Positions 1,017-46,790 of a stretch of 64,000 nucleotides of DNA are shown piece by piece; within the stretch, counting starts at the first letter, position 1, and every line of letters begins with the position of its first letter. The DNA lies in assembly GCA_000091205.1 (NCBI GenBank), contig AP006498.2, one strand, 5' to 3'. The stretch comes from Cyanidioschyzon merolae. Taxonomy: Eukaryota. Position numbers and translations under genes: made by a program. Below the pieces are notes generated by a model. That model ran no database searches, was not told where the DNA came from, and saw only the letters and a program-made list of their open reading frames with translations.

Positions 1017-3496
1017 ATGAAGCTTTGGACGAGCTCACGAGTCGGTAGCTCGCATCCATGTATTCTGGCTTTCTCCGAGACTCTGAAAAGCTATGACACC
1101 CCCTTCACAATAGAAGAGGACACATCCTCCAACGCAGGCGTACAGAATACCATTTGTATCTCTTCAGATTTTCATCAAGATCAGCCTTTGTGCGCTGTTT
1201 CTGCGACTGCATTGATTTCCTCCCTCTTTTCTCCGGCTTTAAATAAGCAGCGCTTTCCTTCCCATCAAGTTCCGTTTTCAGCAGCTGGGGGATGCTGATG
1301 GACGCATGAATGTACAATAGGCACCGTTCACGGCTGGTGTCGACCCATCGGATGCACAGACCGAAGTTGCGATCCTCGCTTTGCGAACCATTTTCTTCTT
1401 CTTTGTATGTAGCCTCAATGCGCCGCTGGCAGTTGTGATACGTGGCCGCTGTTCAGTATTCTGATACGCCCACAGCATCTTCACCGCCAAGCACCACCCT
1501 GTGATGCATGAACGCCTGCGTCATCGCTCAGTACACAACCATGATGGGTATAGATGGCTGGCATCGACGCGCTCCTCCGTTCATGCGACTGCTACCACAC
1601 ACTACGATCATGGAGTTCTTCTGGGCAAACTGCTATACGTGGACGGTGCCCGCTATACGCGCCAGCGTGCGCTGTTCCACATGATGGAAGATTTCCCGAA
1701 AGATATGGTGACTATGATAAAACATGTTCCTGAAGGAATATCGAGACTCAGGGACAAATCTAGATTTTTCGATCCCACTACGCTCGCTTCGTGCAAAGCG
1801 GTGAAGCGCTTTCCATTGGTAGCGATCCCTGCGGTAAGTAAAATGCGATTCGAACACCCTTTCCCATACAGTCAGAACACAAGTGACTCGAGTCTCTGCG
1901 AGCATATCCAGTGCGAGGTATCAGGCTGTAGCTGGATACCGCTTTCGTTGATGTCCACAAAGTGAGGAAGATTTGTATTTCGAATTGAATCGATTACTTC
2001 ATGAGACAATTTCAATCGAATTTCAACATTGGCGTGTGAAGCACTCGTCAAGGGACGCAGTGGAGTTTCTTTCTCGTCAATAAAATGCTAACCATCGATG
2101 CGCCCGGTGTTCACTTTGAAACGGAAAGATCTAGGACTAGAAAGAAGCGTAGTTGAAGCATGCTGCACGTAAGGAATCGAGAAGAGTAGATGCTTGAACG
2201 TATAAACTGGATAAAGGTATCTTTTATTTTTATCAAACCTTCTTGAAGAATGTCGTGAATCAAATGCATTCCTGCGATGTATCGAATACCAGCGCGAAAA
2301 AGAATCGAAAGCGCCACTCCAGAAAGTCTCCTGAAAATCCTGAAACTCTACTCATGAGTCCGTGAAACCGTATTCGTGCAATTTAAATTTCGATGATGTG
2401 TATCAAGAAAATTTAGCACATTTTCTCAAGCCAGGCACAGAGCGAGCAGTTCGGTGTTCCATATTAGTCTGACACAGATGCAGGACACCGTTCTGCATCT
2501 GCGCTCGCAGTGCACGCATTCGTCGAATCCGAGGTCATCGATGCAACAAAAGTATCATTTCTCTGCTTTGGTGCACATGGTGATCGTTCAGGATGATGAA
2601 GATCTGTATGTCTATGCCATCGAAGCGGCAAAAGTAGCATTCTTCTGTTTTGATGCTCTCGGTGATCGTTCAGCTTCCCAGAAGTCTATACTCCGAGACC
2701 ATCGACGCGGCCAACGTCTCACTACTCTTCCACAGTGGACAGGGTTATTCATCAGCTTCCTGGAGATGCACATGGCAAGTGTACTGCAGCGGTGAACCGA
2801 TCATCCCTGTTCCTTGGTGCAAAGCGGGGTCATTAAGGTTCCGTCAGACGCATATCCAGAGGAAGCGGCGGTGGCGGGACAGTCGCCAAGCACGCTGTCG
2901 GAGCGACCAACAGAGACGCACACAGAACGACAGCTGCTTTTGCGTTCGTAAGCACCATGGATGCAAATGCATCCAAAACCGCATGCGTCGTGGACGTGGT
3001 ACCACGCATCCCGTGTACTGTGTTCGTGCCCCAGAGGATGCTGTGCAGTAGTCTACCTGGACTGCCACAAAGAGGTGCGCACCACGTTCCTGTTCACTGC
3101 AAGAGCTCAGCTGTAGAAGTGCCTATGCGCCTCAGGGCAAACGTTTTTTCCAGAGGTCGCTGGGTTTTCTGGTCTCGGTGGAATGCTCGTGCATCTTACA
3201 TAGTCTGTACGCAACACGCATTCAACTGTTCGCGAACGTTCGACGCTACACAATAGATGTACACTTCATGCGCAATGCCGTATACTCAGGTTTTTTTTTG
3301 TGCCGGCAAATCTTACCAGGGCCGCTGCAGTTCCCCTCAGAGCGTCCCGCGACACGCTCATACGTGACCTTGACCGCCGACGTCGCTGCGTGAGCGTTTT
3401 CGTGCCATTGAGAGCGTGCGTCTCTGTCTGCGGCTAGACTTGTGAACTGCGCTGCGGACAACAACAGCCCCATGACTTTATGTACAGATTGTATGC

Positions 3497-8516: not shown

Positions 8517-9500
8517 TCATCGAGGAGAGTCTTCGATTGGATCACGCGAATCGGTGCATTCGGTTGGGCCCCAGGGCATAGGTCGATTTTGCAAACGCTC
8601 CTGTCTCCTTTGCAAGCGCTCAATCACGAGCATAAGTTCCGTATCGGGCTCGAGCGAGCCTATGGATACCGTGGCGACGCAGCCGGCAACTGGACAAGGT
8701 GCTGCATGCCTGTCCGTGAGACGTTCACGGGCTCGCAAACGGTTGTGGGCTCTGATGAGCTGCTCTATGCTCTGCTTTTCGTATGAGTGCTGGCAATCGC
8801 GGTTCCGGAAGGGTTGCTGCATGACTACGCCAGAAACGGGGCAGCGTATTCGAGAAGCATCTGGTTCCCAGTCAGCGGCTACATACGTCGGGGCGGTTGA
8901 ATCACCGACAATAGGGTCTGGGCTCGCTTGCTGCGTAGCGGCGAGTGACGGATCACTCAGGCTATCCGCCGAAGCTGACTGCATCGTGCCGCCTTCAACC
9001 AGGCGACGGACCTTGTCACGGTTCCGCTCCGTTATTGTCTCTCCCGAGCTAGCGCTTCTTGCCGACCTTCCCGTCTCTTCAAAACGCCGCCACGTGTCCG
9101 TGAAAGACTCTGTCGTCTGCCCTTCAGTCCCTGTTGGTGTTGGTTCCTGGCAGGAGAGAAGCGCCTCGCGAACTTTCCGTGCAGTTCGGAGGATATTTGC
9201 AGCCTCTCTCTCTCCGGTAACGCACTGCGAAGCAGCCAACGAGAGACTCTCCAGCGTACCAGCTTGCGAGGCCGCACTGGGGCCCTGACAGACTGCCTCC
9301 GGGTTCGCAGGCGCTCCTCCGAGAAGGCACCGAGATGCGCTCACCAAATGCTCCGAGAGGAGCACGCTTCGCGTCTTCCACGCAGTGGTGAAACGCTCAA
9401 TATCGGCCAGTGAGGCCTCAAAGTCAGGACTTTCAACCGTTGTGCCTTCCGCAATGGATTTGGCAAGTTCTAGTATTGAAGCCTCGCCGCTACGCTCCAT
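8517..9500 (-). CDS. NSE2: NSE2/MMS21-type SP-RING SUMO E3 ligase (SMC5/6 complex subunit)
   Basis: The C-terminal CPVSGVVMQQPFRNRDCQHSYEKQSIEQLI...APCPVAGC...L.PD..L matches the Nse2 SP-RING (CP.T..P....C.H.[FY][ED]K..I......CP..GC). ATG confirmed at 9500. The plus-strand ORFs 7902..8786 and 8326..9288 overlap it antisense and have no recognisable domains. Confidence 0.7.
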   Translation of the reverse strand: MERSGEASILELAKSIAEGTTVESPDFEASLADIERFTTAWKTRSVLLSEHLVSASRCLLGGAPANPEAVCQGPSAASQAGTLESLSLAASQCVTGEREAANILRTARKVREALLSCQEPTPTGTEGQTTESFTDTWRRFEETGRSARSASSGETITERNRDKVRRLVEGGTMQSASADSLSDPSLAATQQASPDPIVGDSTAPTYVAADWEPDASRIRCPVSGVVMQQPFRNRDCQHSYEKQSIEQLIRAHNRLRARERLTDRHAAPCPVAGCVATVSIGSLEPDTELMLVIERLQRRQERLQNRPMPWGPTECTDSRDPIEDSPR

Positions 9501-11505
9501 GTCTGGTTCTTCTTACAAGAGGTGAGCGTATCGAAGAAGACCTCCGCCTATCTACCTGCCTGTCTGCCAAACAAATATTGACGGAACCCAACCGCTTTCC
9601 AAACCAGGCGTGCCACAAGTCTAACAGTACTCTTCGGGCAAGTTTCCAGGTTTTGGCGCCACATCCTACGCGCTTCCGCAGGGTGCGTTTCATTCAATGC
9701 CGGTACACGGCTGCAGGCTTTCGTCGTACAGGCGGAGCTGCGTTCCCTTACTCCTCCACTTTGGAAACAACCTCTGCGTTATCAGAGAGAAAGGCTTGAA
9801 CTGCTGTGTCCTTGACGTTCATCGCGATGTTCGTTTATTTGCAGAGTTTCAGTTCTGCTCGCATGAGGCCAGTTGCAATATGCAAGGCACAATAGTGTCG
9901 GACTTGTACACTTTGTCGTTAATTATGCAGCACTGCAGGCAGGAACTCTCGCGAGAATAGTTAATGGGAGGGGGGTTGGAACTGTGAAGTGCCTCAACAC
10001 GGCATGTGCCGGTGACTCGGTTTGTCATGTTCTTCAGCAACCAGGTAGGCAGCCTCTGGGAGTCATTTTGTGCCGCTGCAAAAGAACCACCTTGCACCAG
10101 GGAAAACGTTCTTGTTTCCGTGAAACAAAAATAGGCGAATCTTAGGACAAAAGTAAAGATCGGTCTCTGTGATATAAAATCAGCCTCCGAGTTACCTGCG
10201 AGGAATGTGGAACTCGTGGAAAACAGCGGTCCTTTATGAGTGAAAGCCGTTGCATTCCACATGCAACGCTTTTCCGGTAGCGAATTCGGGTCCAGGTACC
10301 TCAATGTACATCATCGACTTGTAATTAATCAGACAGCGCTGTGGCGGCCACGTAGGATGGTAGATGCGTGCGCTCCTGTCCAGGCACGAAACTGTCAGCG
10401 CTCGCCTCTGTCTCCACGCCAGCTCACGGATGGTGCGATACCATGCTACGACTTGCATGAGATTCATGCACTGAAGAAGAGAAGCATGAGACAAGTCAAT
10501 TCGTAGTGGCATGCAGGCACAGACTCGTTCTATCACAAGCCAATGTTCCCTGTGCTGAAGCGTTCTTCAGGAGAATCAAAGTATGCCACCGCGCTACCCT
10601 GAGCGTTTTGGCTCCGTGCCTGTTCTGCCGCCTTCACCAAGCCGGGGCTCGAATCATTTCGATATCCTTCGGATGCTTGCTAGTGCGTTACGGGCATTTC
10701 CAGAGCACCGATGCGAAGCTGACTTCTGCTCCAGTGCCTCGGCATTGAAGTCTGTGCTCGCATGCGTTGACGAAGAATACACGGCGCGTTCGAAACTGAC
10801 GCGCCGTTTCCGGCCAATATCCCAGACGGACAGAGCTCTTCGCGGAGTCATTACTCTGGTGAACGCCACGCAACGCAGCTATCATGCGCCCGAAGACGGG
10901 ATTCGACCGTACCCAAGAGCGCCCCTGCCCAAGTGCGGCACACATCTCGTAAATGGATCCCATGTGATGGCCTCTTGTAGCGAAACTGCTACCGGATACG
11001 TTATCCGAGGCGAAACCTCGGCAAATGCCAAGATACACCGGCGTTTGCGACCAGTTCAACTGTCCCGGAGTGTGACTGCAAATCTTCGTAGAATATAGAG
11101 ATTCCCATCGCAACATATCTTTGTCTGGGCGGAAACGTTTGCAAAGTAGTTCTCCACGGAGCGACTCTTGGTGGGCGTTTCCCGCCACGGAGCGCAAACT
11201 GGCCCCTTGGGTGCGGCTTCCTGATGGCACTGTAGCTGCGCGACATGTGTGTGCGAACGAGTCGTTCCTGGGTACTATGATGTACGGAAACATGACAGTA
11301 ATGATTGCTTTCCCTGCATGGGGCCTCTTCGTGTTGTCGGCTCGCTTTCTGTGGCCCAGGGCTCTGCTAATTTGATGTCTGACGAAAATGGAAATCGTCC
11401 AATAAACTAACTCGGACGTACATGCGAAATTTTTGGATCTTTCCGCAGTCATCAACACCAGCCTTGGCGGATTCTCTGTGACTGCTTCCATTAGATTTCT
11501 CGTAG

Positions 11506-11965
11506 CTACGACTTTAAATACGCCGGTCGATCACCTCCCTCAAGATCTGTCGTCAGAGCTCGACGGATATTGATGCCAGCATTAAAGTCCCGATTTCGCC
11601 GTCTCAGGCTGGTGCCAACGCATGCCATGCCCAGGCAAAAGTTGCGATCTTCGCTTTGTCTGCCATCTCCATTTTCTCTCCAGAGCAGCATCGATACGCC
11701 CTTCGCAGCAGCGACTCTTGGTAATGGTCACGCTTTTCCTGTTTGTCCAATACGCTTCCTCCTCTGAGCGCCGCCCTGTGGCGCGTGAACGCTTGCCCCA
11801 ACGCTCACAGCACATGCACGTGCTGGGTACAGAACCATCCCGCAAGTGCCGTCCTCCATCCACGCGCCCGGTACCGTACCCTGTGATCGACAGCTTATTC
11901 CGGGTAAGTCTGCGGCAGGTGCTCTGCCCGCTGAACACGAAAGCGCACGCCACTCTATTCGACAA
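11506..11965 (-). pseudogene. TnpB/Fanzor-like C-terminal remnant (zinc ribbon plus RuvC-III), frameshifted
   Basis: SVPSTCMCCERWG resembles the TnpB motif pSSkTCsnCG. In a second frame, RNFCLGMACVGTSLRRRNRDFNAGINIRRAL resembles RtFtCpnCG...DRDvNAAiNI. The upstream ITGYGTG sits at the RuvC-II position without the Glu. Confidence 0.5.
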
Positions 11966-12160
11966 AGGATTTGTGGATCGCGATGTTGTTCACGATGAAA
12001 CAAGTTCCGGACGGGAAACCCGCAGCAGCCAGAAGACTGAGGAGCTTCGAACAATCCACGCTACACTGGTGCAACGCGGTGACGCACTCTGCGCTGGGGG
12101 CGAGCGCTGACGTCAGTGCGAGTCCAAGACACTTCTCCGTGCAAGCAGAAGCGCTGGAGC

Positions 12161-12220
12161 CTCCGAGAGCCTCCGAGAGCCTCCGAAAGCCTCCGAGAGC
12201 CTCCGAAAGCCTCCGAGAGC
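12161..12220. repeat. 10-bp tandem repeat (ctccga[g/a]agc) x6 inside R1 copy 1, with only x2 in copy 2 at 19996..20015
   Basis: Direct reading of the sequence. The 40-bp length difference is the only indel between the two near-identical copies. Confidence 0.9.
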
Positions 12221-12664
12221 ATACCCCCAAGAGAGATATCGTGCTGTTGTCGAACCCTATTTCGTGGATGGCCACACAGAGTAGAGAATAACTCCTTCGG
12301 ACGGAATAGATCGTTCGGCGTTCGCAGTCCAGTCCGGAATCGGCACAAGCTCGCGAAGGAGTCCTCAAGGGAAGGCGTCGAGTTTTTTGGTCGCCAGTCC
12401 ATCAGAGCAGATTCCTACGCGCTCGGGTAGCCTCGAAACCAGAGAACTCTAAAAATTGAAGAATGCGTCATTTGAGCATATTACTCGTAAGGAAGGAGTA
12501 TGAGTGGCGTCTTCTGCGTATGAATTGGATGATGGTATCGGTTATTTTACGAACCCTTTTACGGGGACGTCGCGAATGACCGTGACTCTGGGGATGAAAC
12601 GCAGTCCAGCGGGAACGAGTCGAAGGGGTCATTCCGGAAAGACCACCGATGATCCTGGAGTTAT

Positions 12665-14935
12665 ATGAAAATCCCAAACCGATTGCTGCACTTTGCATGC
12701 CGAGGACGTGCAGCTAAAAGAATTTCGGGAGAATTGCAAGGCAGGAAGAGAGCGAAGAGTTCAGTGTTTCATTTGAATCTGGCTCGGCTGTTGTGCACTC
12801 GTCCAGAGGAGGCACCGAAATGCCTCGGAGAACGCTCGCACTGCACTCATCTTAAGGGACTCGTGGCAATGGACTTCAAAGACTTGGTTGCTCTCCGTTG
12901 TGAACTTTCTGTGCAGAGTCTGACAGAAGTTTCGGCTGCACTCCGCCGCGTGATTCTGAGCAAGTCCTACTACGAGTATCAGGTAACTAGAGCGCCCCTG
13001 CGGAGTTTCCTCAACAACGGACCGCTATGGATTTTCCAGACTCTGAGCGGTGCAGGCAGCCTATGGGTATCAAACTTTTACGACACTTGCCGGGATCTCA
13101 TCGCGTCGGGAACGAGACCGGCAACAGGCACTTCCAGTTCTGCGGCGGGCGGCGCGCCAGCGAGGGCCTCACCGACCAGGGCGAGCGATAAAACAGAAAA
13201 GAAAAAGGCTCGGAGGCTGCTGGAGCTATGTCAGGCCGCACAGCCACCGGGGCTTCGCTCTTTGTGTGAACTAGAAAGGGCCCGATGCCAGGCTGCTGTG
13301 CATGCTCTCGGCCGTCTCGAGCGAGCCTTAGCAGTGTATCTTGGAAGGGCCCAGGAGGAGCTTTCTCGTCTACGAAGTTTAGTCGAGAAAGATCCTCAAA
13401 ATAGTTCTGAGTTGCGGGCACTCTTTCTCTCTTGCGACGAATTGCATCACCGTACACTAACAGCGCTGGAAGCAACCGATGTGGATGCTATCGAGGAGGC
13501 TGTTTACGCCCACTTGTTGGTCGATTCTGACGTTCTGGCTGATCTGGATCGCTGGGCTTCTATAATGAAAGAGGATGCAGAACGATTCATTACGCTCCTG
13601 CGCGATGTTCCGCGTAGATGGAACGTCTATTTGACTCTGGAAGAGCTCAGTCGCATCATGCCTGCGGCAGGACGTCAGTCCGGAAAGCGCCGCGGTCTGG
13701 GCTTCATCGAGCGATTGCAAAGGGTTTCGCTCATTTACCCATCGCACTTTGCGAGAAACTGGATACGCTACCTGTGCGGTACCCTGACCATCTTCTGGTC
13801 CTGGACGAAAATCAGCGCACATCGCGAGCATGTGATGCATATCGCACTGAGCGTACGTCAGGTTGTGAGAGGCTTCTGGGACGAGCGCATTATTACCCCG
13901 CTCACCATGATCTACAGGGAAATCTTTCAATCGTCGTATCGAACATTCATGGATCCGAAGGCGGTTCAGGCTGAGAAAGAGACCTTGAAGCGCATGGTTG
14001 TGGATTTTACCCGGGAGGCCTATGCGCGCCTCCCGGACGACCAGCGACAGGAAGCTGAACTTCTGGCTGCAAATGGTGATCTCACACCGGTCATGAAAGT
14101 CTACGAACGCCAGATTCGCAGCCCTGTGGTGAATATGCTTGCTGGTGACGTGATCAGAGCATTACTCATACAAGTCCAGAAACTCAAAGTTGATGTCGAG
14201 CAGGAGATGGTCGCTGTAGACTCCTTGGTTCGTTCGAACGAGCTCAATCTCCAGATCGCTGCTGCCGTTCCAGGCGTTCTTGGATGTTGCCTAGCGGTCG
14301 CGCTCCTGTACCGCTGGTTCAGGCGTTGGTGGTCGAGTATTCGCCTCACTGAAGTAGATCGTTTCGGAGGTGGCGGATATCTCTGGGCCAACGCCTTCGC
14401 CGAGAAGCTTCCCACCCGTGAGCGGGCCCGCCTCTTGCTACGAGATATCGAACGCTATCTGGTGTTGACGCTTTCGCTACGCGGCCCTGAAGCAGCTTCT
14501 GCGAGGCTTCAAGAGACGCCTCTGCTCCAGAAAGCACAAGTGCTCAACGGGAGAGCGCCGGCTTCGTTGGCGTCCGCTTCTCCGGAACGTGTGCAACGAG
14601 TATCAGATCGAACGCTCGCGACGTTCTTCCCTGGCGGTCTCGCTCAGGGTGAAACTGGCGAGAACCTCAAAAGCAGTGAAAATAGTGTGATTTTTCTCTC
14701 GACGGCTTGCATTGCTGAGTACGAAGACAAAGGACGTATTCTTCTCACCCTGGACGAACTGGAGGCCATGGTAACGAGCCGCGCTGGAGAGTTTGGGATC
14801 AGCCGCGGCTCTCAGCTGGAGACTCGCCTACGTGAAGATCTTTTGGACCTGAGATCATTCGCTCTCGACGCTGAACAAAAACTGCTCACAATCCTTCGAA
14901 TGCGCTCTACATATCCCTTTTTATGGGATCGCTAG
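12665..14935 (+). CDS. NCA2-like (nuclear control of ATPase 2 family) membrane protein; the first 39 codons come from the R1 repeat, so the true start may be ATG 12869
   Basis: A 756-aa uninterrupted ORF. VRGFWDERIITPLTMIYREIF and VDSLVRSNELNLQIAAAVPGVLGCCLAVALLYRWF (a TM segment) recall conserved NCA2-domain blocks (gFW.nWv.eP...I..ti; ksNELnF...vaP). This is recalled from memory and not verified. ATG at 12665 lies inside the repeat; the same start in copy 2 gives only the 71-aa ORF 20460..20675. Confidence 0.4.
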   Translation: MKIPNRLLHFACRGRAAKRISGELQGRKRAKSSVFHLNLARLLCTRPEEAPKCLGERSHCTHLKGLVAMDFKDLVALRCELSVQSLTEVSAALRRVILSKSYYEYQVTRAPLRSFLNNGPLWIFQTLSGAGSLWVSNFYDTCRDLIASGTRPATGTSSSAAGGAPARASPTRASDKTEKKKARRLLELCQAAQPPGLRSLCELERARCQAAVHALGRLERALAVYLGRAQEELSRLRSLVEKDPQNSSELRALFLSCDELHHRTLTALEATDVDAIEEAVYAHLLVDSDVLADLDRWASIMKEDAERFITLLRDVPRRWNVYLTLEELSRIMPAAGRQSGKRRGLGFIERLQRVSLIYPSHFARNWIRYLCGTLTIFWSWTKISAHREHVMHIALSVRQVVRGFWDERIITPLTMIYREIFQSSYRTFMDPKAVQAEKETLKRMVVDFTREAYARLPDDQRQEAELLAANGDLTPVMKVYERQIRSPVVNMLAGDVIRALLIQVQKLKVDVEQEMVAVDSLVRSNELNLQIAAAVPGVLGCCLAVALLYRWFRRWWSSIRLTEVDRFGGGGYLWANAFAEKLPTRERARLLLRDIERYLVLTLSLRGPEAASARLQETPLLQKAQVLNGRAPASLASASPERVQRVSDRTLATFFPGGLAQGETGENLKSSENSVIFLSTACIAEYEDKGRILLTLDELEAMVTSRAGEFGISRGSQLETRLREDLLDLRSFALDAEQKLLTILRMRSTYPFLWDR

Positions 14936-16112
14936 CAGCTGTGCTACCGTATTGTTCCCTGCGATCCTGCACGTTATGCGCTCATCCAGTGCCCTGCGAC
15001 CGCTTGCCACTGAGTGCTTCTGTATGTTTTCACTCTGTACCTGCAATTCGTGCGCTCTGCCAAGCCTCTGTTATCGCTCGCCACTGAGTGCTCCTGTACG
15101 TTTTCACTTGGAGCCTGCATCTGATGCGCTCATCTCATCCATAGCGCATTGGTGAAAGACAAAGTCCTTTCTCAGAGGTATTTTTAAAAAGGCTCTTACG
15201 GATGAAAACTGTTCGTATGTGCACCGCAGTGGTGCCCATCGTTTTTTTTTTCGAGTCGGAAAGTGCTCTCGCTCTATCGCCTACCCCACCGGAACTAATA
15301 CTGCATACATCGTTGTCTCCAAAAGAAACGTTCCAGCGCTTGCCACGCAGTCTGTTGTACGTATTTCGTACAAGTGATGCATCGCGTCAACGATGGCACT
15401 CTGCCAGACTGCATTTCGTCGTTTCCAGGGCCTAGCACCCAGGGTCCGTTGAAGTGGGTCGCTGTTCGTCGCATGCAGCACGCAACCGGCATCGAAGAGA
15501 GTCACTGGAAACTACTCGAGGAGCAGTGCCTGCCTCTCGCTGCTAGATCCATTTACAGCTGTCGCAACTTGTTATGGCCATAATGTCCATGGAAACCGAA
15601 AAGCTACGGTAGGCAAGTAATATGTAACTGCATCGAATGCAGTGGTTGCAGCACCTCCATCGTAGCAGCAGTCAAACGATCATGGCGCTGCTCCTTTGGC
15701 GCATAACGCATAACGCGCGGGCGCATAGACTTGCATCTGTGTTGCCATCAATGCTCGTTTATTCCGTCGGGATTTCGAAGCGCCCACGATCGCAGTGGGA
15801 GGAGTACGAAACATGTGAAAGCACCAGATGCCGAATCAATCTCCCGTCCTCGAATTTGCACATGAAACCGTGGGATTCGTGCGTCTCCACAAGCCCTGGC
15901 TAATTTAAGATGCGCTTCTTGAGACATTTTTGATTGTGTGCCGTCTAACGCCAGCGTGGGCAACGTGAACGAGCCTCCAAGCTAGGACGCGACATTTTTG
16001 TCTTCTACACACATGCGAACATACATGGGAAAGGGTCTCGTACCGCTGGCGTACGCTCTAAAGATTGGGTCTCTCCCCATTGTAATCAACATGAGCCTTT
16101 GGGGGCTTCTCA

Positions 16113-17235
16113 GCGATTGTTTCCGCTTCCTCTCTCCTGTCCACGCCATTCGGTACACTAGTCGCTACAGTTCCGTTATCAGCTGTTGGAAGATGTGGAT
16201 GGCAGTGACAAAGACCCGATTTCGCTCCTTCTCGCTGTTGTCGACGAATGCAGTGCAGAGGCGGCAGTTACAACCTGCGCTTCTGTTGCTATTTTCAATT
16301 TTTTTGTTTACAGCCTCGGTTCGCCCTTCGCAGCAGTGGTACTTGACTGCCGTCACGTGTTCTCGTACGTCCATCTCACTTTTACCTCGAGCACCGCCTT
16401 GTGGTGCGTGACGGTTGCTTCATCACTCAGAACATGCCGTGGGCTGGTACGGAGGACTCCCCATAATGTCCTTCTCCGTTTCCGCACCTGGTCCCGTACC
16501 TAACGATTACGGACTCCTTCTGGGCGGTACAAACGGCGAGTGCTCTGTTCCCTGCACATGCGAGCGCATCCTGTTCCATTCGATAGTTGATGTTTAGAAA
16601 GAGACGTTGTCCATAATGAACCGAGTGAAGGAAAAATATTTCAGGCCGGAGATCAAGTCGGGATACTTAGATCCGTCTACGCCCTCGGCATGGGAAACGG
16701 TGACTCACGCTCCACTGGAAGCGATCGCTGGAATGCCTCGATTCCCAGTCCAGGAACTTTTCCATGGAAACAGAAAAGACGGGAATCGCTGGATCCGCAA
16801 TCGGTGAGAGGTTCATGCTGCTGCCGAATCCTGTATTTCGGATAGCCTGAAAGAGAGAAGGATTTACCTTTCGAACAGAGTCGATCATTAAATGTGACAA
16901 GTTAAGCGAAATTTCAGCATGAACTTCTTAACAAGGCCCTGATGGACGTTGTCGAGTTTTTCTCTCGCCAATCTAGCTATGCGAAGGGTTGCGACAACAA
17001 AGTTGCCTTCAAACAGCAATATGGAAAACTTGAGGAACGCATGATTTGAGCATGGAACACCTAGTGACTTGGGAAGATTGGAGGCTTGCGCGTGTGAACT
17101 GGATAATGATATCGTCTATTTTACGACCCGCCGTTCGAAGGCGTTGCGAATCATCTTAATTCGTGTGAAGTTACGAATTCCAGCAGCAAATAGTCGAAGA
17201 CGCCATTCCGAAGACACAACCGAGAATTCTAAAAT
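16113..17235 (-). mobile_element. R1 element copy 3 (diverged, about 1.1 kb), same orientation as copies 1 and 2
   Basis: Plus-to-plus DNA homology to copy 1 over 11441..12650, for example aaagacccgatttcgctcc versus aaagtcccgatttcgccgtc. The end module 16900..17225 aligns with 12340..12650. The minus ORF 16165..16374 carries KYHCCEGRTEAV...CNCRLC...RNRVFVTAIHIFQQL in a single frame, matching the copy-1 pieces RCCEGRIDAA / CLGMAC / RNRDFNAGINIRRAL. It starts with TTTCCGCTT. Confidence 0.6.
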
Positions 17236-17406
17236 CTACATATGAACCAGTAAGTCCTCACAGCTGTACTTTAAAATGTCGATGCTTAACGTCTAAAAAC
17301 AAGTGCGAATAAAAGTCGAAGTGCAGGAACATTGCGAGTAGTCCAGCGTTCCATTTTTAATCTGACGCAGTTGTGGAGGGACAATGAATCCCGGAGCGAC
17401 TTTGCC

Positions 17407-18516: not shown

Positions 18517-19191
18517 ATGCCTCGCATAAAGCACGCTTCAACGAGCGACGGAAGGAGCAAGACGGTGACAACGCATGGCAAAGGAGGCTCTTCCACAGTG
18601 CGCTCGAGCAGAGCCTCCGCACGCGCCGGCACTGATGCACCTCGAAGCCTGGCCCGCACTGGGGGCGCGCAAGACCACAACTTGCGGCGTTGCAGCAGCG
18701 AATCAACAGAGGCTCTCTCTGATTCGGACACGAGCTGGAAGCGAAGCGACGCAGAGAGCGCGGACGAGACCAGTGGGGAGCACGACCGGTCAGCCACGCG
18801 GAAGCGTAAGCAAACCCAAGTTAGCGGAAGCGCAGTGAACGGCAAGAGAGCTGTTCGCGGAAATGGCGTAAGAGAGCTTGAACAGCCCACTGCAGCTGCC
18901 GCAACCGTGAAAACAGAGGCAGCTTCTCTGAAAAAAAAGCCCGCTGACAGTGCGAAAAAGTTGAAAGCATCGGAGGTCACCTTCGTTTTCGATGAACTTC
19001 GCAATGATCAACGTTTTATTACACCTCGCCAGCTCATGAGGGCAATCATGTGTCAAATGGGGCAACAAGAGGCTGAACAAATGACTGACAGCGACATCAC
19101 AGCGATGATTAGACTAGCCGACACCAACGGAGACAACAGAATCGACAGAGAGGAGTTTGAGAATTTTGTACAGAGAGAAATCCGTCTCTGA
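18517..19191 (+). CDS. small basic protein with a C-terminal EF-hand
   Basis: The C-terminus has an EF-hand loop DTNGDNRIDREEFENFV. The N-terminal half is basic and Ser/Ala-rich. ATG at 18517 (the ORF track starts at TTG 18514). Confidence 0.45.
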   Translation: MPRIKHASTSDGRSKTVTTHGKGGSSTVRSSRASARAGTDAPRSLARTGGAQDHNLRRCSSESTEALSDSDTSWKRSDAESADETSGEHDRSATRKRKQTQVSGSAVNGKRAVRGNGVRELEQPTAAAATVKTEAASLKKKPADSAKKLKASEVTFVFDELRNDQRFITPRQLMRAIMCQMGQQEAEQMTDSDITAMIRLADTNGDNRIDREEFENFVQREIRL

Positions 19192-19273
19192 ATATACCAC
19201 TAAACCTATGCTCCATAAGTATGAAACGAGTCCTATCTGGACAATTCTGGTTTGCATATTCAAGTTTCTGTCC

Positions 19274-20583
19274 CTTTCCGCAGTCATCAACACCAGCCTT
19301 GGCGGATTCTCTGTGACTGCTTCCATTAGATTTCTCGTAGCTACGACTTTAAATACGCCGGTCGATCACCTCCCTCAAGATCTGTCGTCAGAGCTCGACG
19401 GATATTGATGCCAGCATTAAAGTCCCGATTTCGCCGTCTCAGGCTGGTGCCAACGCATGCCATGCCCAGGCAAAAGTTGCGATCTTCGCTTTGTCTGCCA
19501 TCTCCATTTTCTCTCCAGAGCAGCATCGATACGCCCTTCGCAGCAGCGACTCTTGGTAATGGTCACGCTTTTCCTGTTTGTCCAATACGCTTCCTCCTCT
19601 GAGCGCCGCCCTGTGGCGCGTGAACGCTTGCCCCAACGCTCACAGCACATGCACGTGCTGGGTACAGAACCATCCCGCAAGTGCCGTCCTCCATCCACGC
19701 GCCCGGTACCGTACCCTGTGATCGACAGCTTATTCCGGGTAAGTCTGCGGCAGGTGCTCTGCCCGCTGAACACGAAAGCGCACGCCACTCTATTCGACAA
19801 AGGATTTGTGGATCGCGATGTTGTTCACGATGAAACAAGTTCCGGACGGGAAACCCGCAGCAGCCAGAAGACTGAGGAGCTTCGAACAATCCACGCTACA
19901 CTGGTGCAACGCGGTGACGCACTCTGCGCTGGGGGCGAGCGCTGACGTCAGTGCGAGTCCAAAACACTTCTCCGTGCAAGCAGAAGCGCTGGAGCCTCCG
20001 AGAGCCTCCGAGAGCATACCCCCAAGAGAGATATCGTGCTGTTGTCGAACCCTATTTCGTGGATGGCCACACAGAGTAGAGAATAACTCCTTCGGACGGA
20101 ATAGATCGTTCGGCGTTCGCAGTCCAGTCCGGAATCGGCACAAGCTCGCGAAGGAGTCCTCAAGGGAAGGCGTCGAGTTTTTTGGTCGCCAGTCCATCAG
20201 AGCAGATTCCTGCGCGCTCGGGTAGCCTCGAAACCAGAGAACTCTAAAAATTGAAGAATGCGTCATTTGAGCATATTACTCGTAAGGAAGGAGTATGAGT
20301 GGCGTCTTCTGCGTATGAATTGGATGATGGTATCGGTTATTTTACGAACCCTTTTACGGGGACGTCGCGAATGACCGTGACTCCGGGGATGAAACGCAGT
20401 CCAGCGGGAACGAGTCGAAGGGGTCATTCCGGAAAGACCACCGATGATCCTGGAGTTATATGAAAATCCCAAACCGATTGCTGCACTTTGCATGCCGAGG
20501 ACGTGCAGCTAAAAGAATTTCGGGAGAATTGCAAGGCAGGAAGAGAGCGAAGAGTTCAGTGTTTCGTTTCAGTCTGAAGGTTG
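19274..20583 (-). mobile_element. R1 element copy 2, near-identical to copy 1
   Basis: The six-frame ORFs are identical to those of copy 1 (for example the 61-aa MLLWRENGDGRQSEDRNFCLGMACVGTSLRRRNRDFNAGINIRRAL... and the 162-aa ORF). The only differences are the VNTR count and roughly 3 SNPs. It diverges from copy 1 immediately after ...agttcagtgtttc. Confidence 0.75.
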
Positions 20584-20804
20584 TAAAGTGCGATTGGTCA
20601 ACGATACTTGCACTGCCCATCAAGAGAGTTTTACGGATCATCGTTTCCCCACCGCTGCCAAAAATTTGCAACTAAGCATTGCGAGCTGGATCATGTTCTA
20701 CATCGTGTAAAATCGATCCGCACTTGTCCAACAGAGGCATTCGTCCGTGCCCCTGAACGAAAGCCTCGCCTGGAATTCTCAACGTGAAGGTTCTCCCGTC
20801 CGTG

Positions 20805-29949: not shown

Positions 29950-30545
29950 TTGCACGGAAATCGCAACGAAAGCGTTCCTAGAACGTTGCGATCGGTATGA
30001 AGCTGAGCAACGCCCGTGTATTTCAGTCGATGTGGCTTGCTTCGGATGAAACGGTCGGAGCGTACATAAGTATTTGCTGGGCGGGAGCCCGGCGTATGTA
30101 CGATCCAACACGAAGAGAATGACGACATTATCATCTGTTCTAGGTACAGTGTATGCATATGGCGGCCTCAGTTTCGCTTATAAAGAAGGCTCATACATCA
30201 GGACCCTTTTCGTCGAATTATTCAAGATTTTCCTCCTCACGTCTGGCGGCGTCATTTTGTTGGACAACGTGGCGTTTCACCATTCCCCTTGCGTTCGAGC
30301 TTTTGCAGATGCGGTTGGGGTAGAACTGCTTTTCACTCCTTCGTACGCTCCTTGGTTAATCCCAGTCCAGGAGTGTTTTCTATCATGAAACGTAATGAGC
30401 GCTCCACTGGGCGTACTGATGAAGCGTTCAGCACACGGTGACACCAGGGCACATTTCGTCTTTCCTCCGCAAGTCCCTGTCTCTCCGGGAGGGTTTTCCC
30501 CTAAGGGCATAAAAAGGTGCGTTTATTTGAAGGAATAAAAAAATC
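29950..30545 (+). mobile_element. Tc1/mariner (IS630-superfamily) transposase relic B, 5'-truncated
   Basis: ORF 30074..30388 encodes ...GGVILLDNVAFHHSPCVRAFADAVGVELLFTPSYAPWLIPVQECF, which carries the second D and the E of the DD(34)E motif (DN..H ... Y.P.LNP.E). It is homologous to relics at 34550..35350 and 45840..46790, and the 3' tail is homologous to the low end of relic C. Confidence 0.7.
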
Positions 30546-34575: not shown

Positions 34576-35350
34576 TACACTATGAAAAACACTCGTTCTT
34601 TGGGGTTCAGCTATGGGCATTACGGAGGAATGAAAAGTAGCTCTACCCCCGATAGAATCCGCAAAAGCTCGAACGCAACGGAAATCGTGAAATGCCAGGT
34701 TGTCCAGTAGAAGCACATCAGCAGATGTGAGGGAAAAGTCTCCAATGATTGGATCATGTGGGTGCTATTTCATGAGCCTTCTCTGCGAGAGAATCCGAGG
34801 CCGCCAAATATATCCACTGCAGCTAGAACAGATGATGAAATCTTTCTCTTGGAGTTCGATCTTATATACAACTGGCGCCTTCTATGCGAATACCCATATA
34901 CAATCCGACCGTTTCGTCCGAACGGAGTCTTACCGACTAAGTAAACGGACCGACGTGCCTGTGCTTCCCAGCGATCGAGACGTCCCAGTAACTCTGTCGT
35001 TGCGATATCGGTGGAAGATGGTGGTGCATGAAACTCAACTTTTTTGCGACTGTATCCCTGTGTATTCAGGACCACACGAACAAGCTGCTGAGTACCAGAC
35101 ACGCCCGTGGTCGCTACCATCGTACGGTTTGATTTCTCTAAAGTGATCAACATATCGTTTTCTACCATTGACCGCAAGCACGCTTCGAGAATATCGGTTA
35201 CTGGCTCGGAGCGCATACACGTTTTTCTTTCAGTTTTCCTCAAACATTTGCGCACTGTGGTATGGCTTACTTGAAGGGGCAAGGCAGTCCTCCTTGCACT
35301 CTTCAACAGAGCATATATCCTATAGGTAATTCGCCTACGATCTAAATGTT
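34550..35350 (-). mobile_element. Tc1/mariner (IS630-superfamily) transposase relic A, degenerate
   Basis: The minus ORF 34770..35306 has an HTH (LQVSHTTVRKCLRK) followed by SVYLVGKTPFGRN (first D of the DDE motif mutated to G) and YIRSNSKRKISSSVLAAVDIFGGLGF. A further reading below 34770 gives ...VLLLDNLAFH.... It is homologous to relics B and C, and the 5' flank 35150..35350 matches 46600..46790. Confidence 0.7.
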
Positions 35351-37769: not shown

Positions 37770-38279
37770 CGTCCAGCGAGCGACGTGCTCGGCTCAAAAG
37801 CCTGTCGTTCGCAGAGATCCATCGGGGTGGGCGTCTGCTAGGACAGCGCTCGCGCATCTGCGGACGCTACGACTTGCGGCAAATTGAATTGCGGAGTGCT
37901 GGATCATCGGCGCCACGCGACCCGACGCCGCAGTGGTGTAACAAGCCGCTAAGCATACCGATAGCTATCGTGCAAATGAGGATAGCTGGATCTTGAAGAA
38001 ATTCCGAAACACTCAAAATACGGAATCGCTACGGCACGCATGCGCATCAATGTGAGAATAAAATGGAACGGATCCTCTACTTCGGACGAACACACTAAAG
38101 TTTCTAACCTCCTGATGCCACCAACACCAGCTTTTTCGGGTTTTTTTCTGCGTTTGCTACTCTTTCCTCTTTTTTGTACCAGGTTATAAATCCGCTGATC
38201 ACTCCTTTCCGTCCAGCTATTTGTCAGCAGTTGGCAGTCGTCGATGGCAGCGTTAGGATCCTGAGTTCGCTGCTTGTAG

Positions 38280-38760
38280 CTTTCGTCAACTCATTTCGAG
38301 CACAGGCGGCAGATGCGATCTTCGTTTCGCTCGCCATTTTCGTCTTCTGTGTATACAGCCACGATGTACCTTTGGTAGCACAGAAACTGCACCGCGGTCA
38401 ATTGTCCTCATATTAAAAACATCTCTTTTTCCGAGGGCCGCACTGTACAGCGTAAAAGCTTGCTTCATTTCTTGGTACACACTTTTCACGGGTTCAGAAG
38501 GTTCTTCTCGATGCCATCCGCCGTTTCCGCACCCGGTGCCGTATGCTATGATCACGAACTTCTCGCGCGCGATGCGCTCAGCGAGTAGCCTGTCCGCTGC
38601 ACGCGCATATAGACGCTTCCCGTTGGAGAACTCGCCATACCTTTCCTTGCACCCACTTCGTTTTCTGCAAACTCTACAACCCAACGTAACGTTGAGCGTT
38701 GCGGGCATCGATGTGCCTTGGCCACTTGCAGGCATCGTGTCCACACGTTCCACTCACACA
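38280..38760 (-). mobile_element. R1/F-family fragment (copy 5), same orientation as the others
   Basis: DNA such as ccatccgccgtttccgcacccggtgccgtatgctatgatcacgaactt matches ccatccacgcgcccggtaccgtaccctgtgatcgacagctt in copy 1. The minus ORF 38286..38753 carries KFVIIAYGTGCGNGGWH, compared with copy 1 ITGYGTGRVDGG and the long element KILVVAHGAARW. Confidence 0.5.
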
Positions 38761-39548
38761 AGCTGATGCGGGTAAGGCTTCTGAGCCTCCCTACTGCTTC
38801 CGTCGCTCGACGTACCGTTCTCTTACCTGCCCGGTTTCGTTGAGACGAAGACAATTGGTGCGCGAATTGGACGCCCAGCTGTAAGTGCAAATTAGGCGAT
38901 TCGAAATTCTTGTCTTCAAAGCGTTGTCGGTTGTCAAAGTAGGATTTACTCGAATTCGGTGCTGACAGAAACGCTGGTGTGGAGATGTGCACTCCATGAG
39001 GTCAAGCCTGTGCAGATCGCATTGGGGAGTAAATTCGCAGCGCTATACTTCTGTACGGCTTGTTTCCCCTCGGCTATGTCCTCTTCTAACTAGTGGTGCA
39101 TTTGAGTTCTGACGGGTCATGGAGCGCGTGGGACGTTCGCTATCGATGGCAATGGATACAATCACGCGATCGGTCTCGATAGAGCACCGTGTCTCCTCGA
39201 TATACCGCCAGACTCCTGTTCCTCATTTTTTCGTTCTCTTTCGCACCTTGCTTTATCTGACAGAGCTTTTCCTTTCTCAAACGGTTCAAGATTGCCTGAG
39301 AAGCTCCAGAAAAAGGCTCCAAATATTGCTTCATAAACTCCAGGTCGTCGATCAGCACCTCTTCTACGCCGCACCTTCCGTTCTCCATCGGACGCATCCG
39401 CACCCTGTCTGCGTTGGCAAGCCTCTTCACAATAAAGCAAGAAAGGCGCAAAGCGAGGCGATACTACCAGCGAACCAGAGATGTGTTCGGAAAAGATGGA
39501 GGCCTCTGCCATCAGGAGTTCTGGAAAACCACTCCATCTACAGAAGCA

Positions 39549-40619
39549 TCATTGCTTTCTTGGACGGTTACTTGCAGGTTGCAGGTCTATCTTCTTCTTG
39601 GTGTCTTCGTCTTTCTCGGATATTCCGTAGAGTTGCATCACGCTTTCCATATCTTCCGAGCCAATGGGCTTCAGCACAGCTCCCGTTGTGAAGAATGCGT
39701 CCATGCCGCCCAGGCCAATGACCGTGTCGCCGCTCTCTCTCCTCCCCGTAATCGGGACCTTCATGTGCCCATCGGGTTGAATTCTTAATTTTTTCAAGTT
39801 CGACGTACGTACTTTTCTGTCTACATACTTCTTTGTTTTATCCAGGCCATTATGAGTCACCATGCGAGTGAGGATCTCGACATCCGCAAACCCGTTCAAC
39901 TTGGAAGCCGATGTGCGTGTGGCGTCGATGGAAGCATTGAGCGCATGAGGTGTTTCCGGTATGCGCTCCGGCAGAGTGAGGACATGCAAGGCCGTAAGTG
40001 TCAGCAACGCCTCTAAGAAGTACCCGACTTTTACAAGAATCCCGCCGCACATGATGTTTGCGGTTACGATGGTGAGGTAAGCGCATCGCTGGAGCATGGT
40101 GCGAAAAAAAACATATTCCTGGACGCCAGCTGTCTGTTCCGGCGACAGCAACTACGTTCCGAGGTATCCCTTTATGATCATAGTGTCGCAGAGCAGCGAT
40201 GAGAACAGCTCCTCGTCCCAGAGAACGCCGAAGCAGTAATCTTCCTGTAGGAACGCGTTTCGTATGGTGCTGCCACATTCTCTGCGAGCGACAAACAGCT
40301 CTCTTCGAAACCAGCTGGGATCTTTTGGCGAGTCTTTCACAGTTGTTTCCCTGGCATACCTGGTTTGTACGGGCTGCGTGCCTCCATTAATAAACAGGTC
40401 ATTAATCCGTATCCTTAATGCATTATTTTCCGTTTTTGGTATGCCTCTTCTAGAATCCACGATTAGAGAACGTCGGCGACTTCTTGCAAAACCTGCGCAG
40501 GCGAGTGCGGCAGCCGCAGTCGCTATGCCATGAGCGTCGAGCACTTGTTCGTTTCGGGGACGATCTTTATGATGGAAACTTGCATTTGATTCCATGAAAC
40601 AGCTTTTCAAGGTCCCCAA
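39549..40619 (-). pseudogene. two-TM membrane protein gene interrupted by a single in-frame TAG (356 codons in all), either a pseudogene or a readthrough/sequencing issue
   Basis: ORFs 40152..40619 and 39549..40151 are in the same frame and directly contiguous, separated only by TAG (plus strand cta at 40152..40154). The hydrophobic stretch YLTIVTANIMCGGILVKVGYFLEALLTLTALHVLTL forms the TM segments. Family not recognised. Confidence 0.4.
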
Positions 40620-40649
40620 ACGACATATTCGTGTTTAACCATGGGGAAT

Positions 40650-41340
40650 AAGTTGTAATGTATACGATGATAAATGCTTTGTTCACTGGCGTCTACCAAA
40701 GAGAAGAGGGTTGGTGGAACGTGATGTTGTCCGTGATGAAACAAGTACCGGGAGGAAAATACAACCAGGAGAATAAGTCGACCAATCTGGATTCGTCAAC
40801 GCACTCTTCATGTCCAGCGGTGGCGCAATCTCTACCGAAAATGATCGCCACTATAGCTTAAGTCCGATCCCAAGTCAACTGTCCATGCAAACAGAAGAGA
40901 TGGGAGCCTCCCGGAGTAAATATTTTGAGCGGCATCATCATGCAGAGGAGTGGTGTTGCATCGATGGAAGCGAAGAAGGGATCATTTTTATCAGAGCGAA
41001 ACCCATTATTTGGCGTGACAAGTTCAGTGTGCTTTCGGCATGAGCTTGTGAAGGAGTCTTCAAGCGACGGCGTCGCGTTTTTCTCGTCGCCATTCCAGCG
41101 GCGCGAATCGCTGCGCTCTCGAGTTGCCATCAAAGAAAAAACCAACAGCTTGAAGAACGCTTGATTTGAGCAAGCAACTCGTAAGGAGAGAAGCAGCGTG
41201 GTAGCTGGACCGTATGAACTGGGTGCTGATATGGATTAGTATACAAACCCTCTTTCCAGTCTGTGGCGATTCATCTTGATTCCAGTGGCTTGAGGAATTC
41301 CAGCGTCAACGCCTCAAAGGAGCCAGTTCGAAGCGACGAT
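40650..41340 (-). mobile_element. R1-family fragment (copy 4), containing the conserved end module
   Basis: gaacgtgatgttgtccgtgatgaaacaagtaccgggagg matches gatcgcgatgttgttcacgatgaaacaagttccggacgg in copy 1. Peptide echoes are MLSVMKQVPGGK versus MLFTMKQVPDGK, and KNATPSLEDSFTSSCRKHTELVTPNN versus KNSTPSLEDSFASLCRFRTGLRTPND. The module 41150..41340 aligns with 12460..12650. It lies in the divergent promoter region between the 39549..40619 gene and the DHQS-like gene. Confidence 0.6.
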
Positions 41341-41623
41341 CGATTAGCCAAAATCTACGTGCAAAACCTTTAGCGGTAAATACGGCACTTAAATGCCTTG
41401 GCTGCACAGCTAAAAAAGTTCAGAAAAAATCGAAAGGCAGAACTTAGCGATTAGTTCATCTTTACCTGCCGCGGCGGCTAGATCCGGGATGGTACGCTCG
41501 GTAAGATCTTGCTGCAGATTCCAAACTAGGTAGTGGTCAGCACAGCGTTTCAACGTGCTCGACGAACAGACGAATCTGCAAAAAAACCCTGACGTCGTAC
41601 GCATAGGGCCGAGGTGTTGGTCT

Positions 41624-45839: not shown

Positions 45840-46790
45840 CTTGCGTTTTTTTTATTTTTGACAATTAACGCGCTTGTTTATGCCGTTAGGTGAGGACCTG
45901 TACGGCGGGGGAAATATTAGCGGGAGAACGACGACATGCGCCCCTATGTCAACGTGTTCTGAACGTTTCGGCGATCCTTCCACTGGATCGATCGTTACTT
46001 TTCCGGATAGAAGAAACTCCATCGATGGGGTTCAAACACGGACACTTCGAAGGAATAAAAAAGCAACGTTAGCCCGATAGAATTGGCAAAAGCTCGAACA
46101 CAAATGGAATGGTATTTACCATTTCGTCCAAGGGAAGGAGGTCACCACACGTCAGGAAAAAAGTTTCAATGATTCGAAAAAGTGGGCGCTGTTGTTTGAG
46201 CCTTCACTATGAGCGATACTGAGACCGCCAAACGAGTCCATCGCAGCTAGAACAGATGATGTCGGAGTTCTCTTTGAGTTCGACCCTGCATACAACAGGC
46301 TCCCTCTCCGCGAATACCCATGTACGCTCCGACGGTTCTGCCCGAGGGGAGTCTCATCGACTAAAAAATAAATCGACACACCTGTGCTTCTTACCTATCG
46401 CACGGTTTCAGGAAAGCTGTAGTCGCGATTCCTGTGGAAGATGGCGATGCCTGAAGCTGAACTTTTTTGCGACTGTATCTTAGTGTTTCCAAGACAATAT
46501 CAACAAGCTGCTGATAAACAGAGACGCCCGTGGCGACTAGTGTCGTCGCGTTTTGCTTTCCTTGAGGCGAGCAACGGGTCATTTTTATACGACTGACCGC
46601 AAACACGCTTTGACAATTCCAGGCTTTGGTGCGGAGCACACATACTTGTTTCTTTTAGTGTTCTTGAACGATCAGAGTATTGTGGTATGACTGACCCGAA
46701 AGAGGAATGCCGTCCTCGTTGCACTCTTCAGTAAAGAATGCATCCTACATTCAATTCGTCTACTATCTGTACGGCACATTTCGTAATGAT
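45840..46790 (-). mobile_element. Tc1/mariner (IS630-superfamily) transposase relic C, degenerate
   Basis: The minus ORFs carry an HTH (RVSHTTIL), then ATGVSVYQQLVDIVLETLRYSRKKVQLQASPSSTGIATT, then SIYFLVDETPLGQNRRSVHGYSRRGSLLYAGSNSKRTPTSSVLAAMDSFGGLSIAHSEGS (first D of DDE within FLVDET). It is homologous to relics A and B. The antisense ORF MPLGEDLYGGG... mirrors 30277..30510. Confidence 0.7.

Follow-up and report, generated by a model that had tools for sequence, protein, structure and literature searches.

LTR- and MITE-associated promoters are examples of host-gene promoters and 5' UTRs that derive from transposable elements (TEs). In plants, TE fragments co-opted as cis-elements have been discussed (bioRxiv 10.1101/2022.10.24.513474). 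In Cyanidioschyzon merolae, a 'novel interspersed repetitive element' was described that is present in 253 copies with a mean length of 3.2 kb, makes up about 5% of the genome, is transcribed and carries a truncated WSV486-like ORF (Nozaki et al. 2007, PMC1955436). A later re-annotation of this genome includes 1755 EDTA-annotated elements, 40% of them of unknown class. C. merolae is a model alga in which no promoter has been dissected so far, and, according to a 2025 paper, none of its endogenous promoters has a known TATA box or transcription start site (PMC12770821). Likewise, our literature search found no transcript start or 5' UTR data for this species.

Here, we analysed a 64-kb stretch of C. 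merolae 10D DNA (the window), in which nhmmer identified five copies of a non-coding repeat family of ~1.4 kb, all on the + strand and at non-homologous sites. Two of them, at 11385..12797 (+) and 19222..20599 (+), are older family members that host copies 1 and 2, respectively, of a near-identical sequence termed R1. The other three are diverged: copy A (1100..2498, +; 65–69% identity to R1) lies between the convergent genes for RNase III-like and VTT-domain proteins; copy B (16013..17373, +; ~68% identity) is followed by the Fpg/Nei start codon at 17407; and copy C (38051..41479, +) consists of two pieces (38051–38607 and 40706–41479) split by ~2.1 kb of other DNA, and is followed by the first ATG (41624) of a 3-dehydroquinate synthase ORF. 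As with TE-derived promoters, the repeat lies in sense before three start codons, ending 33 nt (Fpg, copy B), ~71 nt (NCA2-like gene, the member hosting R1 copy 1) and ~145 nt (3-dehydroquinate synthase, copy C) upstream of them; it differs from such promoters in that it belongs to no recognised element class, is linked to these genes by position only and, in two of the five copies, lies upstream of no gene. It also resembles the repetitive element described in 2007 and the EDTA-annotated elements in being dispersed and intergenic, in having been found in no other genome examined than that of C. merolae, and in fitting no recognised transposon class. Compared by description, it differs from the 2007 element in its length (~1.4 kb versus 3.2 kb), in having no conserved ORF or Pfam domain and in its greater density (five copies per 64 kb here versus 253 per 16.5 Mb).

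The structural features of known mobile elements were sought in the family copies. The copies share no terminal inverted repeats, and no long terminal repeats, A-rich or poly(A) tail or tRNA-like head were found; the termini are too eroded for a target-site duplication to be scored. The R1 ORFs contain no Pfam domains, including transposase and reverse transcriptase, their codon scores are those of non-coding DNA, and the tblastx similarity of the family is equal on both strands. A non-coding RNA or SINE was discarded as a candidate (no Rfam match at E<=1, no tRNA), as were Helitron or TIR termini, for which the copies gave no consistent signal. The idea that the R1 pair represents LTRs flanking the NCA2, Fpg and EF-hand genes was rejected because these three genes are syntenic in sister lineages without the repeats, and there is no gag/pol.

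Two syntenic loci represent these sister lineages: a metagenome locus (L006; 56% amino acid identity) and that of Cyanidiococcus yangmingshanensis (L007). Searching both with the family profile gave no match even at E<=10. The spacer between the EF-hand and PEMT genes, which measures 1613 bp in C. merolae, provides an empty site of the kind expected of a TE: removing the 1378-bp family member that hosts R1 copy 2 leaves 235 bp, compared with 230 bp in L006 and 234 bp in L007, which explains the difference in spacer size. Insertion of the family copies into intergenic DNA would have followed the split from Cyanidiococcus-like lineages.

N-terminal over-extension of gene models, produced by prokaryote-style or longest-ORF calling, is the closest known counterpart of what is seen at the NCA2-like gene. 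The preliminary description of this locus, made from the DNA letters, took ATG 12665, which lies inside R1 copy 1, as the annotated start codon of this gene. This ATG does open an ORF of 756 aa, beginning MKIPNRLLHFACRGRAAKRISGELQGRKRAKSSVF and running to 14935; however, the public 688-aa protein of C. merolae 10D (BAM81800.1 / XP_005537836.1) is 100% identical to the translation of 12869–14935, and the expert-curated 10D annotation places the start at 12869. The coding sequence at 12869..14935 (+), starting MDFKDLVALRCELSV, is a real gene, as indicated by the public protein, by its orthologues in sister lineages and by a match to the Pfam NCA2 family PF08637 (ATP synthase regulation protein; E=2.5e-51, 175 bits against a cut-off of 20.6, residues 381–602 in the 756-aa frame). 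As in other cases of over-extension, the 756-aa form is confined to unnamed metagenome gene calls (JGI, ENA and Logan), whereas the downstream Met is the start both in the curated annotation and in the orthologues; an exact look-up of 10D proteins recorded neither the 756-aa nor the 688-aa form. Unlike the usual artefact, part of the extra codons here comes from a repeat, so the artefact recurs at R1 copy 2, where the same ATG (20460) opens, as previously noted, only a 71-aa dead-end ORF (20460..20675, +). We therefore caution that mechanical ORF calls, such as the 756-aa 'hypothetical proteins' of metagenome pipelines, over-extend NCA2 into the repeat, and the curated 688-aa model is worth keeping.

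The comparison with orthologues leads to the same start codon. In both L006 and L007, where the family was not detected, the first Met of NCA2 aligns with Met 12869 (MDFKDLVAL), and homology begins right after it (L006 MVEYGDIVQLRYELS and L007 MTEYSEIVQLRCELS, each aligned with C. merolae MDFKDLVALRCELS). Upstream of the orthologue starts, in-frame stops occur at 31 codons (L006) and 19 codons (L007), with no intervening ATG. The start context also differs between the two candidates, ATG 12869 being found in ggcaATGg (G at -3, G at +4) and ATG 12665 in ttatATGa (T at -3, A at +4). Very probably, then, the 756-aa ORF is a longest-ORF over-extension, NCA2 starts at 12869, and R1 is a copy of an old dispersed repeat homogenised by ectopic gene conversion. 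The true start is already in use in public annotation, and there is nothing out of the ordinary about it.

The in-frame, stop-free stretch between the two ATGs (12665..12868, +), comprising 68 codons, is almost certainly non-coding DNA that is in part repeat-derived. Its codon-usage score is -0.05 per codon, compared with +0.13 (sd 0.07) for coding windows and -0.14 for non-coding windows, and only 0.9% of coding windows score as low. Its open length is no greater than chance gives, as at least 72 stop-free in-frame codons are found upstream at 11–13% of positions in the non-coding DNA of this genome. No homologue of residues 1–68 of the 756-aa frame was found in NCA2 orthologues. MAFFT paired 'RISGE' in the extension with 'RISQSGE' in the NCA2 of Cyanidium caldarium, a match we regard as an alignment artefact because BLASTP of the extension against the Cyanidium N-terminus gave no similarity (E=7). 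The preliminary description assigned the first 39 codons of the long ORF to R1 copy 1; in fact, near-identity ends at 12770/12771, which leaves 35 codons plus 1 nt within R1, and the older, family-level homology reaches ~12797, or ~44 codons. The 204 nt upstream of ATG 12869 would accordingly be made up of 106 nt of gene-converted tract, ~27 nt of older repeat end and ~71 nt of unique spacer (12798..12868, +), and would be stop-free in frame by chance.

A different reading is that transcription from R1, upstream of 12665, yields a 756-aa NCA2 with a 68-residue extension, as the sole product or as a minor isoform, whose first ~44 residues, derived from the repeat, could serve as a basic targeting peptide of the presequence type. 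The extension is indeed strongly basic and rich in arginine and lysine, with a net charge of about +9 over its first 35 residues as read from the sequence, and looks like a mitochondrial presequence; gene models of Cyanidium caldarium also carry an extension of ~100 aa, unrelated to this one, before the conserved block. The long ORF is open, and its ATG kept, in every strain contig examined, although this says little because the strains are only ~0.3% diverged. Against a chimeric protein stand the N-termini of the two closest lineages, with their upstream stops, the non-coding codon usage, the poor Kozak context at 12665, the curated 10D start and the fact that the first 35 codons are held identical to a copy in which they lead nowhere. 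Moreover, the only two substitutions in the extension, found in the strain contig L005 within 12798–12868, are both non-synonymous in the long frame (dN/dS among strains has no statistical power, with 5–7 differences in the gene body and 0–2 in the extension), and eight more upstream ATGs (12463–12649) would be present in any transcript that begins far upstream within R1. We thus consider a chimeric NCA2 highly unlikely.

Environmental contigs were also considered in this respect. Several JGI and Logan contigs of 2.4–3.8 kb run unbroken across 12208–16236, from R1 into the gene, and belong to a Yellowstone project in which metatranscriptomes were also sequenced. Should they be RNA-derived, transcripts would contain R1 sequence and ATG 12665, which would favour a chimeric product. 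Contigs L001 and L011–L017 all break off at repeated sequence, namely at the R1 boundary, the 10-bp array, a 74-bp array or the beginning of copy B, and no poly(A) tails were found on them. These contigs, which may be of DNA or RNA origin, were set aside as uninformative on the start. Of the two alternatives originally put forward, a true start at ATG 12869 with the element in the 5' flank is the one that stood, whereas a chimeric N-terminal extension is disfavoured by the orthologue N-termini, the public gene model, codon usage, start context and the chance expectation.

Dispersed repeats are known to evolve in concert by ectopic (non-allelic) gene conversion, as in the Ty and delta elements of yeast and in human segmental duplications. 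The R1 pair resembles these systems in consisting of two direct copies, 7.8 kb apart, in which an identical tract is nested within diverged homology. The tract spans 1.33 kb in copy 1 (11439..12770, +), including ATG 12665 and codons 1–35 of the long ORF, and 19274..20565 (+) in copy 2. Pairwise alignment of the two gave 99.6% identity, the differences being 3 substitutions and 40 bp that stem from unequal copy numbers of a 10-bp tandem repeat GAGCCTCCGA (12157..12220, +), whose copy number varies both between R1 copies and between strains. An nhmmer profile made from the three diverged copies (A, B and C), with R1 left out, aligns to 11385–12797 with E=1.6e-193 and extends past the identical tract at both R1 sites, by 52–54 bp on the left and 27–34 bp on the right. 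In addition, when the copy pairs of two strains were compared, at five sites the two 10D copies shared one base and the two copies of the Yellowstone contig L002 shared another, so that, as in the yeast and human examples, substitutions are common to the copies within a genome and different between strains. The two R1 copies evolve in concert, and ectopic gene conversion between two old family members, rather than recent insertion, therefore appears to be what their identity reflects; since insertion, copies 1 and 2 would have been homogenised over 1.33 kb.

The identity of 99.6% across 1.33 kb, together with the sister-lineage empty site, which makes the family look mobile over a longer timescale, could also be taken to mean that an active transposon inserted twice in recent times, as copies 1 and 2, and that the insertion upstream of NCA2 rewired this gene. 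This is very unlikely, given that in each copy the identity breaks off, on the left and on the right, before the limits of the family unit are reached, that the substitutions are concerted in two strains and that both copies occupy the same sites in all strain contigs, with no presence/absence polymorphism among C. merolae strains. Recent transposition also fits poorly with a family that lacks transposase, reverse transcriptase, terminal inverted or long terminal repeats, a poly(A) tail and a tRNA-like head. Scans of metagenome contigs for other near-identical R1 ends, with known sites excluded, gave 0 hits in both cases, which is weak evidence because the scans had no positive control. The 'transposon insertion' of the preliminary description is accordingly borne out as regards a dispersed, apparently once-mobile family for which sister lineages show an empty site, but not as regards the near-identity of the copies, which points to gene conversion between old members. 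For a genome regarded as 'simple', the window holds a dense non-coding repeat family that abuts start codons, appears to be homogenised by gene conversion and was not found in sister lineages.

Considering that the repeat ends ~71 nt before the start codon of NCA2 and 33 nt before that of Fpg, its right end probably overlaps the core promoter and/or the 5' UTR of both genes. The repeat may, therefore, supply promoter sequence, although no protein, and it is plausible from its position that R1 drives or modulates the expression of NCA2, as had been proposed. The repeat could instead be a neutral passenger without effect on NCA2, the promoter and 5' UTR lying within the 71–98 nt before ATG 12869 or beyond the repeat, and we regard this as a serious possibility, if a tentative one. 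In a compact genome any intergenic insertion ends near a gene, two of the five family members occupy spacers between convergent gene ends, which require no promoter, and the argument for promoter activity comes from position. On the other hand, the gaps of 71 nt and, at Fpg, 33 nt leave very little space for a core promoter together with a 5' UTR, a promoter beyond the repeat would imply a leader no shorter than 1.4 kb that contains many upstream ATGs, and three of the five copies are directed towards a neighbouring gene downstream.

It is conceivable, but unlikely, that the ~1.4-kb family as a whole acts as a mobile, outward-reading promoter module whose right end would provide the core promoter and the transcription start of the downstream NCA2, Fpg and 3-dehydroquinate synthase genes, with gene conversion keeping the promoters alike; copies of such a module would couple the regulation of unrelated genes. 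In a rarer variant of this idea, initiation at the repeat ATG would place a basic, presequence-like peptide on a fraction of NCA2. If the right ends of the repeats do carry promoters, they would offer a convenient and testable source of endogenous promoter elements in this alga. The unique spacer that separates the repeat end from the true start codon of NCA2 also holds an upstream ORF of 11 codons (12820–12855).

The NCA2-like reading frame already has a curated gene model, since the translation of 12869–14935 is 100% identical to the 688 aa of BAM81800.1 / XP_005537836.1, a C. merolae strain 10D record titled 'similar to expression regulator of ATP synthase Nca2p'. As the preliminary description stated, the frame can be read from ATG 12665 as 756 aa ending at 14935, and the same ATG in the second copy of the near-identical repeat tract R1, at 20460, opens only a 71-aa ORF ending at 20675. 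Two of its details need correction: the GenBank annotation begins at ATG 12869 rather than at ATG 12665, and identity between R1 copies 1 and 2 ends after 12770, that is, after codon 35 plus one base instead of covering the first 39 codons. The 756-aa form is confined to anonymous gene calls in JGI, ENA and Logan metagenomes, made on Yellowstone strains of 99% identity.

Gene order around NCA2 (VTT-domain, phycobilisome linker, zf-Nse, NCA2, Fpg, EF-hand, PEMT, L31e, NIF) is common to the window and to two sister-lineage loci without a detectable copy of the repeat, the metagenomic L006, at 56% amino acid identity, and L007 from Cyanidiococcus yangmingshanensis. Their NCA2 frames open with MVEYGDIVQLRYELSAQ and MTEYSEIVQLRCELSAR, with which MDFKDLVALRCELSVQ at 12869 aligns residue for residue, so that both orthologues begin at the methionine equivalent to 12869; upstream, in-frame stops occur at 31 (L006) and 19 (L007) codons, with no intervening ATG. 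The search for homologues of the 68 residues preceding M69 found no match, a 'RISGE' match to Cyanidium (BLASTP E=7) being an alignment artefact. In L007 (VWRR01000005.1), the NCA2 orthologue is divided into two overlapping ORFs, 9300–9827 (175 aa) and 9824–11371 (515 aa), a split for which a missed intron, a frameshift or a sequencing error could account; the deposited C. yangmingshanensis protein (456 aa) is without the N-terminal third.

Using a codon-usage score trained on 12 window genes and compared over 68-codon windows, we obtained −0.05 per codon for 12665–12868, against +0.13 (sd 0.07) for coding windows, 0.9% of which score as low, and −0.14 (sd 0.11) for non-coding windows. The open stretch before 12869 needs no explanation, because at least 72 stop-free codons are found upstream at 11–13% of positions in the non-coding DNA of this genome. 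Judged by the Kozak rule, the context of ATG 12869 (−3 = G, +4 = G) is favoured over that of ATG 12665 (−3 = T, +4 = A). Strain variation is too low to inform on the coding status of the extension, with only two substitutions, E48K and K52R in the C. merolae strain contig L005, both non-synonymous. A translated chimeric isoform with a repeat-derived N-terminus, one of two readings first proposed, is highly improbable; orthologues, annotation, codon usage and start context all support the other, in which the true start is the already annotated ATG 12869 and the extension is a longest-ORF artefact.

R1 belongs to a dispersed repeat family with a unit of ~1.4 kb, of which BLAST and profile searches detected five collinear copies in the window, all on the + strand: copy A (1100–2498), copy 1 (11385–12797), copy B (16013–17373), copy 2 (19222–20599) and copy C (38051–38607 plus 40706–41479, split by 2.1 kb). 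The older copies share 65–72% identity with R1, whereas R1 copies 1 and 2 (11439–12770 and 19274–20565) differ inside the tract by three substitutions and by 40 bp, the latter through unequal copy numbers of a 10-bp tandem repeat. No family copy was detected in the syntenic L006 and L007 loci, even at E≤10. R1 ORFs have no Pfam domain and score as non-coding, tblastx similarity among copies is equally strong on both strands, neither Rfam families nor tRNAs were found in R1, and the copies have no detectable terminal inverted repeats or A-tail. The family may be one of the repeats that the re-annotation of C. merolae classed as 'unknown'. Alternatively, it may be kin to the interspersed element with 253 copies described by Nozaki 2007 (PMC1955436), although, compared by unit size and ORF content, that element differs in both from the family described here, which has no conserved ORF.

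The spacer between the EF-hand and PEMT genes is 1613 bp in C. merolae and, less its 1378-bp family member, 235 bp, close to the orthologous 230 bp (L006) and 234 bp (L007). This clean empty-site signature indicates mobility of the family following the divergence of the lineages. The limits of copies 1 and 2 come from a profile built solely from copies A, B and C, and at both sites family homology outruns the identical tract by 52–54 bp on the left and 27–34 bp on the right; the tract is therefore nested within two older, diverged members. Moreover, positions 11737, 11875, 11883, 12038 and 12650 carry one base in both 10D copies and another in both copies of the Yellowstone contig L002 (8805–10117 and 16609–17921), which, as read from the alignments, is the signature of concerted evolution. 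The 'transposon insertion' of the preliminary description thus holds for a once-mobile family, but a fresh insertion as the cause of near-identity fails to explain the nesting and the concerted sites. Near-identity is explained by ectopic gene conversion between direct repeats 7.8 kb apart: the family, undetected outside C. merolae, has an old member at NCA2 that gene conversion keeps identical to its neighbour. What is seen at NCA2 is ordinary and of a type already known. At 12650, a T to G change removes an in-frame TGA and ATG 12649 in some strains. Two scans of metagenome contigs, run without a positive control, returned no further near-identical R1 ends.

ATG 12869 lies ~71 nt downstream of the end of its family member, the Fpg/Nei start at 17407 (MPELPAVE) 33 nt downstream of copy B, and the first ATG of the dehydroquinate synthase ORF ~145 nt downstream of copy C. 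These distances are so short that, for NCA2 and Fpg at least, the core promoter, the 5' UTR or both probably extend into the right end of the repeat. Most family copies share a TAAAA-containing motif, GCTAAAAGAA, which in copy 1 lies at 12711–12720. From its promoter-proximal position, the repeat may contribute promoter sequence to NCA2. A promoter role is not obligatory, given that copies A and 2 each sit between two convergent genes. A general function of the family as a promoter-donating module, suggested by position, seems unlikely. According to a 2025 paper (PMC12770821), none of the endogenous C. merolae promoters has a known transcription start site.

Short environmental contigs that span 12208 into the NCA2-like gene terminate at repeats. 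The gene is found on seventeen contigs of 2–5 kb and on none of 5–20 kb (L011–L017 and L001; JGI 33000503xx / 3300054995 / 3300057139 and Logan SRR296057xx-059xx). Their project, Lemonade Creek (Yellowstone), includes poly(A) and RiboMinus metatranscriptomes, and some contigs run through the junction of R1 with unique sequence at 12770, a point at which a graph assembled from DNA would be expected to fork. These contigs may be RNA-derived, in which case they would bear on the transcript start. Gene calls P0017, P0018 and P0023, on JGI contigs of 2.6–2.7 kb, start with VQAAYGYQT..., another frame of 13050–13100, with sequence from the R1 boundary or close to it joined on immediately; the contigs resemble assemblies that are chimeric or permuted.

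The left end of R1 mirrors the right: minus-strand ORFs at copy 1 (10688–11491, 267 aa) and copy 2 (19114–19326, 70 aa) take their ATG and their opening 18 codons (MEAVTENPPRLVLMTAER) from the repeat. The 267-aa ORF, called as a gene by JGI pipelines, has no Pfam match and scores as non-coding in codon usage (−0.02). A stretch of ~1.9 kb (9501–11384) that separates the zf-Nse gene from the repeat has no match elsewhere in the window or at the sister loci, and this spacer, repeat excluded, exceeds its counterpart in the sister lineages by ~850 bp. Copy C is interrupted at 38607–40706 by ~2.1 kb of unrelated DNA, possibly an insertion nested in the copy or a gene particular to the lineage; this DNA holds a 200-aa minus-strand ORF (39549–40151) that has no Pfam domain and whose codon score (+0.12) is coding-like. 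A second, unrelated dispersed family (72–77% identity) has two direct members, 34647–35130 and 46119–46553, and one inverted, 30021–30320. Directly after the NCA2 stop codon lies a 74-bp tandem repeat (14976–15134), in or near which several environmental contigs terminate and of which the Yellowstone contig L001 apparently has one more, diverged unit.
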